Assembly: GCA_018238545.1 (NCBI GenBank)
Contig: JABCTC010000004.1
Span: 32,001 to 96,000 of the forward strand
DNA from: Candidatus Heimdallarchaeota archaeon
GTDB lineage: Archaea > Asgardarchaeota > Heimdallarchaeia > Heimdallarchaeales > Heimdallarchaeaceae
Reading direction: 5' to 3'
DNA length: 64,000 bases
Shown here: one piece after another, positions 1 to 8,284 of the stretch
Layout of the letters: the number at the start of each line of letters is the position of its first letter
How positions within the stretch are numbered: position 1 is the first letter of the stretch
Position numbers and translations under genes: made by a program
Notes under the pieces: generated by a model
What the model was told of the DNA's origin: nothing
Database searches by the model: none
Seen by the model: only the letters and a program-made list of their open reading frames with translations

Positions 1-3000
1 ACTCCACCGGCAACTAGGAATCCAGCGCCTATCCAAGGTAAAAGGTTATCACTAGAAGCATCATCTGCAGCTATTACGATTACTCGATTACACCGACCAG
101 TTTTTATCCAATCTTCAGCAATTCCAATAGCTTGTGTTGTTGATGCACATGCAGCATTTATCTGTGTATTTGGTCCTTTTGCTTTAATCAGTTGAGCAAA
201 CTGTGCATGTCCCATTGAGAGCACTCGATACAGAAATTCTCTACTGAAACTTTTTTCAGAATTAGGCGTTAAATGTTCAGTGATTTCTTTAATTAGATAA
301 TCGTATCCTGGGAAAGCAGAAGCAAAGATTATTCCTGTCTCGTTTTGTAGACCTTCAGGCAAAGCCCATTCTCCTTCCAATACTTTTCCTGTTGTTGTTG
401 TAAACTCGGATTTAACTAAAGGTATTCCAGCATCTTTTAGAGCTTCTAAACCAGCACAGATTGCTAATTGAAAAGTTATATCTAAGGCTTTTACAAGTTT
501 GGGTTGTAATCCAAAATCTTCTACTGGATTAAATTCTCCTAGCTGTCCTGCTAAATTGATTACTTGTGACATATTTTCTATGCTTTCAAAAGTAGCATTG
601 CCATCAGCTGATTTGATTAATCTAGTTATGTTCTTATTAATCATCTCTTGTTTAACTTCATCAGCTACTGAATCTATGAAATTTTCACCTAAAAGGACAG
701 CATCTATATTGTCATCAGCAAAGACGTTTTTGCTCTTTCCTGGAATCCCAATTCCAACACCAGTAACACCTATTTTGATTTGGGAAGTGGTTGATTCTTT
801 TATAGACATATCACGTTTTGTTTCCTTAGAAGAATCTATATCTACATATCTGGAATAAAGATCATATCCTTGTTTTAGATAATCATGTAAAACTTGATCT
901 TTGCTTAATTGCTCAAATCCTAATGGTTTTTCAATTGTAGAGGATTGATAGGTAGCAACTGGTTTGTCTGTCTTTTCAGTAACATAGGTGGTTTCTGAAA
1001 TGACTTCTTGCGAGACTTTTCTTACACTTTCAATTGTTCTACTTAATTTCTCAATTTCATCTTCTTTTGGAACCAAAGTTGTAAACACTTGAACATCCTT
1101 TCTATTCTTCAATATGTCTTTCACAAATGAGTGGAGAGCTCTCTTTGGACCAACTTCAACAAATATTCTTCCACCTGCTTTGTATATCTCTTTAACTTCA
1201 TCTACCCATTGAACAGATGAACACACCTGGTCTAGAAGTAATTGTTGTACCTTTGTAGGATCTGACGGATATTTACTTCCAGTAACATTACTGAATGCAG
1301 GGATTTGTGGTTTGCTATATGTTAAGCTTGCTAATACTTTTCTCAGCTCTTTCTCAACGCTTTTAACGATTTTAGAGTGAAAAGCTGTTGATACTCTTAG
1401 TTTCTTCGCAGTTATCCCTTCTTCTATTGCAAGCTCAATAGCATCATCAATTCCCTTATCATCCCCTGAGATAACTGTTTGAGAAAGAGAGTTAATATTT
1501 GCAATAGTAATATAATGATCAGTAACACGTTCAACAATATCCTTCACTTTGTGTCTTGTTGCAAGTATTGCAGCCATCGAACCTTCTGTGTTACTACCCG
1601 CGCTACACATAGCTTTTCCTCTTGCGATTACTGCCTTAAATCCGTCCTTGAATGAAAGAACACCTGCAGCAACTAAAGCTGAATATTCACCCAAGCTGTG
1701 TCCAGCTACAAAATCTGGTTTGATACCCTTTTCTTCTAGATATCGAGTGAGAGCAATTTCCACTATAAATAGAGCTGGTTGAGTAAACTTAGTGCTTGTC
1801 AAACGTTGATTATTAGCTTCCTTTGTTAAATTAGGTGAACCAAAGAGAATTTCTTTAAAGCTGATTGAATAATATTGATTCCACACCTTTTCAGCTGTTT
1901 CTAATGTCTCTGCAATTATGTTAGAGTGTTTGCTTAAAGATTCCATCATACCAATATATTGGCTTCCTTGCCCAGTATACATAAAACAAATTTGCTGTTC
2001 TTTCTCTTTTCTTCCAACTTGAGTTTCAAGAAAAGAGGTTGGAGTCAACACAGCACTCCCTACTGGAGCTTCTGATGAATATGTTATCTTATCCTTATCA
2101 TATTCTTCCATAATTGCATGATAATTTGTACCTCCAAAACCAAATGCCGATACACCAGCTCTTCTCACTTCATTATTGTCCACTTTCCATTCATTTGCCT
2201 CTGTATTAACAAATACTGGTGACAATTCCCAGTTAATCTTTGGATTCAATGTTTCCACGTTAACGGATGGAGGTAGTAATCGATTGTGCAATGAAAGTGA
2301 TGTTTTTATTATAGATGCTATTCCTGCTGCACTTTTAAGATGACCAATTTGACTTTTAACTGACCCAACAGCAAGTTTCTTGCCTCGATTTCTCTCATGA
2401 TATACATCATCTAATATTTGTAGTTCAACAGCATCACCTACAATAGTAGAGGTTCCATGAGTTTCTATATATTGGACATCATTTACATTTAAATTAGCTT
2501 TTTTCAATGCCATAGAGATAGCTTGTTTCGGTCCTTCAGGATTAGGAGCGGTTATACCCTTTCCTTTACCATCAGAAGATGAACCAATGGAAGATATTGT
2601 TGCATAAATTCTATCTCCATCTCTGATTGCATCTTCTAAACGTTTGATAACGATAAATCCAGCTCCTTCACCCATAACAAATCCATCTGCTTTCTCATCA
2701 AAAGGTCTTGATCCAATACCTGATAATGCACCAATTTTACAGAATTTAACGTAAGTAGAAATATCCATTGAACGATCTGCTCCACCAACTAAAGCTACAT
2801 CAAAGTCTTTAGAATTAAGAGAAGCTATTGCAGTATCTAATGCTGCAATGCTTGATGCACATGCAGCATCAGTAGTCATAGATTTTCCAGTTAAATTGAA
2901 AACATTAGCAATTCTTCCAGCGATAACATTCGACAATTCTCCAGGCATGGAATCTTCTGTAACAGCAGGATATTTGTGAGAGTAAGATTCCGTTAGATCC

Positions 3001-8116: not shown

Positions 8117-8284
8117 TTGCCAATATTTATACCTTCAATAATCAGTGTATTCATGACAATAGCATTCTTCACTTTACTCTTTGGACTTATTATCTGGGGA
8201 ATAAAATCAATTAACAAAACTCTTGCAAGCAGAAGAATAAGAAGAAAACTTGCAGCTGCTAAAATGGCAGGAGAACAAGCATAA
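8117..8284 (+). CDS. Small single-TM protein (55 aa), not in ORF track
   Basis: TTG 8117 (or in-frame ATG 8153) to TAA 8284, with AGGTG upstream: MPIFIPSIISVFMTIAFFTLLFGLIIWGIKSINKTLASRRIRRKLAAAKMAGEQA. Hydrophobic helix followed by a basic tail. Confidence 0.55.
   Translation: MPIFIPSIISVFMTIAFFTLLFGLIIWGIKSINKTLASRRIRRKLAAAKMAGEQA

Follow-up and report, generated by a model that had tools for sequence, protein, structure and literature searches.

We analysed a 64,000-nucleotide stretch of DNA (hereafter the window), positions 32,001 to 96,000 of contig JABCTC010000004.1 (C73) of Candidatus Heimdallarchaeota archaeon (GCA_018238545.1), and found that its left end encodes the first part of a 3353-residue iterative type I synthase. 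Ketosynthase (KS), acyltransferase (AT), acyl carrier protein (ACP), ketoreductase (KR), dehydratase (DH), enoyl reductase (ER) and phosphopantetheinyl transferase (PPTase) domains are all present in one chain, and the catalytic residues are intact except the serine of the ACPs. Archaea are said not to build fatty acids with such a giant synthase. The enzyme is likely to make fully reduced acyl chains de novo, and we lean slightly towards the fuller reading that these chains are also used in cellular glycerolipids. Enzymatic activity, attachment to threonine, release by a hydrolase, chain length and membrane use are all predictions.

A complete synthase in a single chain

The gene lies on the minus strand and runs from window position 5615 to 3 as 1871 open codons, then off the window edge and leftward to contig position 27554 with no stop codon. 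A first-pass annotation, made from the letters of the window, had claimed the long minus-strand frame, KS, AT and FabK-like ER motifs, and two PfaA-like motifs in the first KS. The frame was confirmed and every one of these motifs was present. Comparison with Pfam and NCBIfam models gave the domain order ER-ER-KS-AT-KS-ACP-ACP-KR-DH-PPT, in which the first ER is merely ER-like. The leftward extension and domain search that the annotation had proposed recovered the ACP, KR, DH and PPTase domains and the end of a whole gene, and the open frame of 3353 residues ruled out a pseudogene.

In the first KS (KS1), the cysteine motif was located at residue 916, HGTST at 1052 and GHLK at 1090. The AT carries GHSLGE at residue 1305 and TAFH at 1410; in the general forms GHS(L/M)GE and xAFH(S/T), these motifs occur in all 60 full-length homologues. 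The same 60 also retain the catalytic triads of the two KS domains and the motifs of KR and DH, and the AT motifs are of the malonyl type. The fused PPTase keeps the invariant Asp, Glu, Trp, Lys and His. Cysteine and both histidines of the second KS (KS2) were present in every aligned homologue shown; with this triad retained, reading KS2 as an inactive chain-length factor was unsupported.

The second ER has an intact GGH motif, which was kept in all 31 Asgard copies having that domain. At the same position the first ER (ER0) shows GGK, GGR, GGL, GGI or GGM, with no histidine among the common motif variants of the homologue alignment. A structural model of the ER0 and ER pair was obtained with pLDDT 93 and pTM 0.94, and its top fold matches were FabK. 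ER0 probably serves as the structural half in a FabK-like pseudo-dimer formed within the one chain.

Integrity of the locus

The locus is genuinely Asgard archaeal, and the gene is whole. The host genome is 3.63 Mb, 91.8% complete and belongs to Heimdallarchaeaceae; members of its cluster are labelled Heimdallarchaeota and Heimdallarchaeaceae. The 112-kb contig also carries mtd, Mre11, Rad50 and glycerol-1-phosphate dehydrogenase (G1PDH)-like genes, and the mtd, Rad50 and Mre11 homologues named in the first-pass annotation were indeed found within the window. A separately assembled JGI contig is colinear and 99.94% identical over 15,719 nt, from a flanking phosphoesterase to almost the whole synthase, and the synthase is intact in the single-contig genomes of H. 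endolithica and Ca. Harpocratesius repetitus. The independent contig and the intact copies in closed genomes ruled out misassembly and contamination. Among the outcomes that the annotation had named as fatal, neither a misassembly, nor bacterial best hits for flanking housekeeping genes, nor a lack of ACP and PPTase, nor a pseudogene was found. GC content at third codon positions was 0.23 at the locus and 0.255 ± 0.04 in the genome, within one standard deviation; the tetranucleotide correlation of the locus was 0.980, a value within the lower decile for windows across the genome. The AGGTGA motif, which had been taken as a sign that the synthase shares the ribosome-binding site of its neighbours, was present in the 10-nt gap, but it precedes only 99 of the 1898 long open reading frames of the genome (about 5%) and is therefore a weak sign of native origin.

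Distribution and phylogeny

We surveyed 399 Asgard genomes, grouped into numbered families. Family f1 is Heimdallarchaeaceae and f2 is DAOWED01 according to its record, while the names Kariarchaeaceae (f3), JABLTI01/Gerdarchaeales (f6) and Hodarchaeales (f5 and f7) were inferred by elimination from GTDB orders (PMC11193907). The synthase was found in 67 genomes; two further matches were stand-alone FabF-like genes. Five Heimdallarchaeia families carry it in 52 of their 58 genomes (f1, 26/30; f2, 1/1; f3, 11/12; f4, 2/3; f6, 12/12). The other 15 were Lokiarchaeia (f19, 3/14; f20, 12/135), and Lokiarchaeum GC14_75 has the synthase. It was not found in any of the 24 genomes of f5 and f7. The synthase is encoded in two frames in the f4 genomes and one f3 genome (L132, L133, L029), with the break near KS2 or before the ACPs, which may reflect a natural split or an error of assembly, and in H. 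aukensis (L097:4899-17439) it is split, with KS1-AT duplicated.

In KS1 trees, which took in no animal or fungal sequences, the Asgard copies formed one clade (SH-aLRT 96 in a quick tree; 89/84 in a careful tree). In the careful tree this clade sat inside the group of bacterial Type R and Type S synthases (100/100), apart from PfaA/Hgl/Ars-like outgroups, and the trees gave no supported placement of its bacterial sister. The Lokiarchaeia copies were sister to f1 and f4 (100/99), and monophyly of Heimdallarchaeia was rejected (approximately unbiased test, p 0.008). This nesting indicated that the Lokiarchaeia copies moved laterally with the whole cluster, and vertical inheritance of KS1 across all Asgards was rejected.

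A non-Asgard archaeal copy of the family was noticed on a 4.9-kb contig of a Thermoplasmatota metagenome-assembled genome (MAG; L062); the quick tree placed it as sister group of the Asgard clade, a position without support in the careful tree. The labels of three further entries, P0091 (Hodarchaeota), P0114 (Bathyarchaeia) and P0123 (Zixibacteria), look wrong: the KS1 of P0091 is that of a Lokiarchaeia-family genome, P0123 falls within the f6 clade, and P0114 resembles f6 copies.

Comparison with known synthases

The closest relatives among bacteria are Type R synthases from Elusimicrobia, Acidobacteria, Chloroflexi and Myxococcota, and one-chain proteins of Desulfobacterota. Type R, described from Elusimicrobium, Koribacter, Solibacter and Roseiflexus (PMC3098273), shares the KS-AT-KS-ACPn-KR core, Thr-type ACPs, neighbouring PPTase and carboxyltransferase (CT) genes, and about 50% KS1 identity, and all core domains align with the 3008-residue protein family of Elusimicrobium minutum. 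Type R synthases have three to six ACPs, a separate downstream PPTase and no fused ER. The present synthase, which is followed by a hydrolase gene, has two ACPs, a fused PPTase and a fused ER pair, and is therefore not Type R in the strict sense but a fused variant. The Type R description calls KS2 a chain-length factor, lists no DH or ER and covers no archaea (PMC3098273). The Type S-like Desulfobacterota proteins (Desulfospira, Desulfomonilaceae) have the same Pfam set, a tandem ER-like region, Thr ACPs and often a fused PPTase, but show 27-36% identity over the ER region and form separate long branches in the KS1 tree. By domain composition, the one-chain architecture is not unique to Asgards.

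The polyunsaturated fatty acid (PUFA) synthase PfaA-E shares the PfaA-like KS1, AT, tandem ACPs, KR, FabK/PfaD-type ER and Sfp-type PPTase. It consists of five chains, whereas here there is one chain with Thr ACPs; the TIGR02813 score was 873 bits, under the cut-off of 1010, and neither a FabA-type DH/isomerase in the chain nor PfaB, PfaC or PfaD partners at the locus were found. Fungal and actinobacterial type I fatty-acid synthases (FAS I) have an FMN-dependent TIM-barrel ER and self-contained de novo synthesis in common with it, and the fungal enzyme also has a C-terminal PPTase. Their order is AT-ER-DH-MPT-ACP-KR-KS(-PPT) with a MaoC-type DH; the order here is different, and no malonyl/palmitoyl transferase (MPT) or MaoC-type DH was detected. 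The ER fold matched FabK at E 1e-19 and yeast FAS at E 3e-8. Animal FASN, KS-MAT-DH-ER(MDR)-KR-ACP-TE, shares the KS-AT didomain, polyketide synthase (PKS)-type DH and KR, but its medium-chain dehydrogenase/reductase (MDR)-type ER and thioesterase (TE) are absent here, and its score of 197 bits is lower than those of some 50 PKS entries from bacteria.

The first-pass annotation had linked the synthase to eukaryote ancestry. That link is weaker than implied, with no copy in the inferred Hodarchaeales, a position among bacterial Type R/S sequences, and bacterial PKS and PfaA scores far above that of animal FAS. There was no sign in the score and fold comparisons that the synthase is an ancestor of eukaryotic FAS.

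A "potentially novel PKS cluster" with KS domains nearest to PUFA synthases was reported in 2020 from one Heimdallarchaeota MAG and very likely belongs to the same family; the architecture, the distribution, the link to carboxylase genes and a lipid interpretation are absent from that report (PMC7472256). De novo archaeal fatty-acid synthesis has also been described for an ACP-independent synthase complex of Sulfolobus (bioRxiv 10.1101/2024.07.05.601840). The one-chain architecture was not found described for archaea in the literature searched, whose scope did not extend to subscription papers. This kind of enzyme is known but uncharacterised in bacteria, and its archaeal fixation, fused form, threonine carriers and lipid-gene context are undescribed in that literature.

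Threonine on the acyl carrier domains

Threonine predominates at the pantetheine site throughout the family: ACP domains of Asgard and bacterial homologues gave 550 Thr versus 9 Ser (about 98% Thr), counted with a profile built from the family's own sequences and with some proteins counted twice. In both Heimdallarchaeum species, two Ser ACPs and one Thr ACP occur in one chain, which suggests that the two types may be interchangeable. A hidden Ser ACP acting in trans was sought and rejected, as no stand-alone Ser ACP was found in this genome, H. endolithica, G035, G055 or H. repetitus. On contig C42 (20720-20962), the present genome encodes a stand-alone 80-residue ACP-like protein with lysine at the pantetheine site. 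Elusimicrobiaceae retain a Ser-type AcpP. The simplest reading of the conserved Thr ACPs and the intact PPTase would be pantetheine linked to threonine.

Reduction and chain elongation across the family

The ER is fused into the synthase in f1, f2, f4, f6 and Lokiarchaeia. In f3, which has no fused ER, FabI was found in 10 of 12 genomes and adjacent to the synthase in four loci, compared with 0 of 33 genomes in f1, f2 and f4. Directly upstream of bacterial Type R synthases lies a subfamily of acyl-CoA dehydrogenase (L083:8279-9916, L070:6498-9965, L092:8134-9990), accompanied by electron-transfer flavoprotein genes in L070, the case checked; its orthologue was present in 38 of 41 Elusimicrobiaceae. 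By analogy with clostridial Bcd-EtfAB, we infer that this dehydrogenase is a candidate new enoyl-ACP reductase. With these three alternative supplies (fused ER, FabI and acyl-CoA dehydrogenase), full reduction is nearly always provided for.

Elusimicrobiaceae were informative about chain elongation. All 61 genomes matched the FabF model, nearly all through megasynthase-sized frames, and only 3 of the 61 have a true FabF. About one quarter have an extra KS pair, a candidate aryl-polyene-like system by its appearance. FabH was under the cut-off in all five genomes checked, and searches for FabI and FabK in the family found neither. The fab operon in L138 and L139 reads plsX-fabG-acpP-rnc, with fabH, fabD and fabF absent from their usual places. 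In the closed genome of E. minutum, the sole KS domains at E<1e-30 are the two of the synthase, all four ACPs of which are Thr-type. By gene content, most Elusimicrobiaceae have no KS system for elongation other than the synthase. A role as core FAS had previously been suggested for Desulfobacterium Type S (PMC3098273).

Membrane-lipid gene context

Canonical geranylgeranylglyceryl phosphate (GGGP) synthase was found in 1 of the 58 genomes of the five carrier families, on a 7.6-kb contig, versus 282 of 317 Asgards outside the class; f5 and f7 gave weak PcrB-like matches only. A divergent GGGP synthase in the present genome was sought by tblastn with three canonical queries and one divergent PcrB-like query, and nothing below E 0.04 was obtained. 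PlsY was present in all 58 carrier-family genomes (3 copies here, 4-13 in f6), as was DegV/FakB (14 copies here, maximum 24), and DegV was absent from all 317 Asgards outside Heimdallarchaeia. FakA-like genes are present, and fakA, fakB and plsY are adjacent in G055; in f1, FakA is apparently divided between a DAK2 gene and a gene for the C-terminal part. A plsY gene lies beside birA in H. aukensis and H. endolithica (L097, L098). PlsY accepts glycerol-1-phosphate in vitro (PMC13400652), and a G1PDH-like gene is on the same contig as the synthase.

Neighbouring genes and malonyl-CoA supply

As the first-pass annotation had it, the synthase starts 10 nt past the stop of the CT gene, and birA is divergent from that gene (Table 1). 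CT, biotin carboxylase (BC), biotin carboxyl carrier protein (BCCP) and BirA are each single-copy in the genome by blastp, and the CT type does not tell acetyl- from propionyl-CoA. The carboxylase genes adjoin the synthase from Heimdallarchaeia to Lokiarchaeia, with BirA adjacent in most loci, and the hydrolase lies beside it over the same range, f3 excepted. The proposal of a co-localised pathway held in the synteny survey, where the cluster was common to both groups: BC, BCCP, CT and BirA would together make up a full supply of malonyl-CoA that accompanies the synthase. Among the loci compared, no genes for tailoring or export were conserved.

In some members of the genus, a second pair of CT and BC genes lies next to the cluster (L095:1-4835, L028:2185-7870). 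Just upstream of the BC gene, an opine dehydrogenase-like gene is coupled to a B12-binding/MutE-like gene (C73:21937-24575), a pair that adjoins the cluster only in close relatives. Elsewhere in the window, a 1918-residue protein consists of two fused UvrA units (45553-51309, plus strand), and three similar minus-strand genes encoding 274-291 residues (31383-32225, 33078-33902 and 33984-34859, spanning 31383-34859) look like nucleotidyltransferase-fold paralogues.

Table 1. Features of the synthase locus. Positions are those of the window unless prefixed C73 (window position = C73 position minus 32000).
Feature	Position	Strand	Remarks
Synthase, 5' part, residues 1-1871	3..5615	-	Iterative type I synthase, 3353 residues overall
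ER0, first FabK-like TIM barrel	4662..5615	-	No GGH catalytic His; TIGR03151 E 1e-12
ER, second FabK-like FMN enoyl reductase	3516..4661	-	GGH intact; PF03060, TIGR03151
KS1, PfaA-like ketosynthase	2061..3485	-	Cys-His-His triad; PF00109/PF02801; top NCBIfam family TIGR02813
AT, malonyl-type motif	996..2003	-	GHS(L/M)GE and xAFH(S/T); PF00698 E 9e-48; FabD model 229 bits
KS2 start, divergent FabF-like ketosynthase	3..788	-	TIGR03150 E 7e-42
Rest of KS2, ACP1 (Thr2174), ACP2 (Thr2269), KR, DH, Sfp-type PPTase	C73, left of window	-	
Spacer, 10 nt	5616..5625	-	AGGTGA ribosome-binding-site-like, overlapping CT stop
CT, acyl-CoA carboxylase subunit, 525 residues	5626..7203	-	PCC-beta/archaeal ACC type; PF01039 E 2e-188
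birA, biotin-protein ligase, divergent	7300..8049	+	TIGR00121 above cut-off
Alpha/beta-hydrolase, 254 residues	C73:26793-27557	-	Overlaps synthase stop
BCCP	C73:26311-26790	convergent to hydrolase	
BC	C73:24786-26288	convergent to hydrolase	

Proposed function and alternatives

In the proposed scheme, BirA would biotinylate BCCP, and BC, BCCP and CT would produce malonyl-CoA. The fused PPTase would prime the tandem ACPs, most likely at threonine, the AT would load malonyl, and the two KS domains would condense iteratively, one perhaps priming. KR, DH and the FabK-like ER would fully reduce every round, and the adjoining hydrolase would free a fatty acid that is saturated and possibly branched. 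The most likely route for this acid in Heimdallarchaeia would lead through FakA/FakB, as acyl-phosphate, and PlsY into glycerolipids. Chain extension and reduction had been claimed in the first-pass annotation. The required ACP, KR, DH and PPTase domains are present; both ACPs are of the Thr type, and activity and product stay predicted. The scheme is favoured by the conserved catalytic motifs, the linked carboxylase and hydrolase genes, the three alternative supplies of an enoyl reductase, the scarcity of FabF in Elusimicrobiaceae, and, in the carrier families, the near-absence of canonical GGGP synthase together with universal PlsY and FakB.

Several observations weigh against this scheme. 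Thr2174 and Thr2269 align exactly with the pantetheine serine of solved ACPs, and no description of threonine pantetheinylation was found in the literature searched. The DH is of the PKS type (PF14765, PF21089), with Glu in place of the usual Asp. The genome retains G1PDH-like, digeranylgeranylglyceryl phosphate synthase (DGGGPS)-like (under the family cut-offs) and three CarS genes. Searches of Heimdallarchaeaceae turned up neither PlsC nor PlsX, as also reported elsewhere (PMC8813620); the second chain of a diacyl lipid would therefore have to be added by a PlsY paralogue or some other enzyme. GGGP synthase is likewise missing from MK-D1, whose co-culture nevertheless yielded isoprenoid ether lipids, with phytane and biphytanes (PMC7015854). 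The 12 f20 Lokiarchaeia that carry the synthase retain GGGP synthase and lack DegV. Since FakAB-PlsY is a salvage route in bacteria, the FakB and PlsY expansion may reflect uptake, and since the compared families are kin, the gene co-occurrence rests on one or two evolutionary events, not 58.

The most serious alternative is an active synthase whose product is a specialised lipid or polyketide, such as a very long chain, a diol, a glycolipid tail, or a storage or signalling lipid, while the membranes are isoprenoid through an unrecognised substitute for GGGP synthase. We regard this as unlikely, though it has points in its favour: the nearest characterised kin, PfaA, Hgl and Ars, make secondary lipids (PMC3098273), there are two KS domains and a PKS-type DH, the lateral copies are patchy in Lokiarchaeia that retain the ether pathway, and MK-D1 is a precedent. 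Such a product fits poorly, however, with a cluster free of conserved tailoring and export genes, near-fixation in five families, the role as sole elongating KS system in most Elusimicrobiaceae, and the universal PlsY and FakB of the carrier families.

A clearly less probable alternative is that the synthase elongates or remodels scavenged acyl chains, or that its Thr ACPs are not pantetheinylated and it therefore uses CoA thioesters or a carrier supplied in trans. The Ser36Thr variant of E. coli ACP is reportedly unmodified, FakB expansion fits fatty-acid uptake, and a Ser-type AcpP is kept in Elusimicrobiaceae. This alternative is opposed by the lack of a stand-alone Ser ACP in all five genomes searched, where the one extra match in the present genome has lysine, by an intact fused PPTase with no other substrate, and by the mixture of Ser and Thr ACPs in one Heimdallarchaeum chain. 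Bacterial contamination, misassembly or a dead gene is scarcely credible: the family is bacterial in origin, the tetranucleotide correlation is low-ranking and the H. aukensis copy is split by duplication, but the archaeal genes of the contig, a GC3 near the genome mean, the second contig, the intact single-contig copies and the single Asgard clade all speak against it.

Returning to de novo synthesis of acyl chains for glycerolipids, a bolder proposal is that Heimdallarchaeales and their sister order crossed the lipid divide, with a membrane made partly of fatty acids that they produce themselves by a synthase with Thr-linked phosphopantetheine; we put this forward tentatively and consider it doubtful. 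The complementary gap, PlsY without GGGP synthase and a DGGGPS-like enzyme without PlsC, suggested a hybrid acyl/isoprenyl lipid. Speculatively, PlsY may place an acyl ester on glycerol-1-phosphate in lieu of the missing GGGP synthase, and the DGGGPS-like enzyme may add an isoprenyl ether in lieu of the missing PlsC.

Significance

A complete, conserved and self-priming system is near-fixed in five Asgard families, where it coincides with the absence of canonical GGGP synthase and the expansion of PlsY and FakB. It does not imply that eukaryotes inherited their FAS from Asgards. It offers a concrete enzyme and a lipid prediction for the transition from archaeal to bacterial membranes, and the cultured E. 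minutum gives a handle on the product of the family and on Thr-linked pantetheine, which, if true, would represent a universal modification in a new form.

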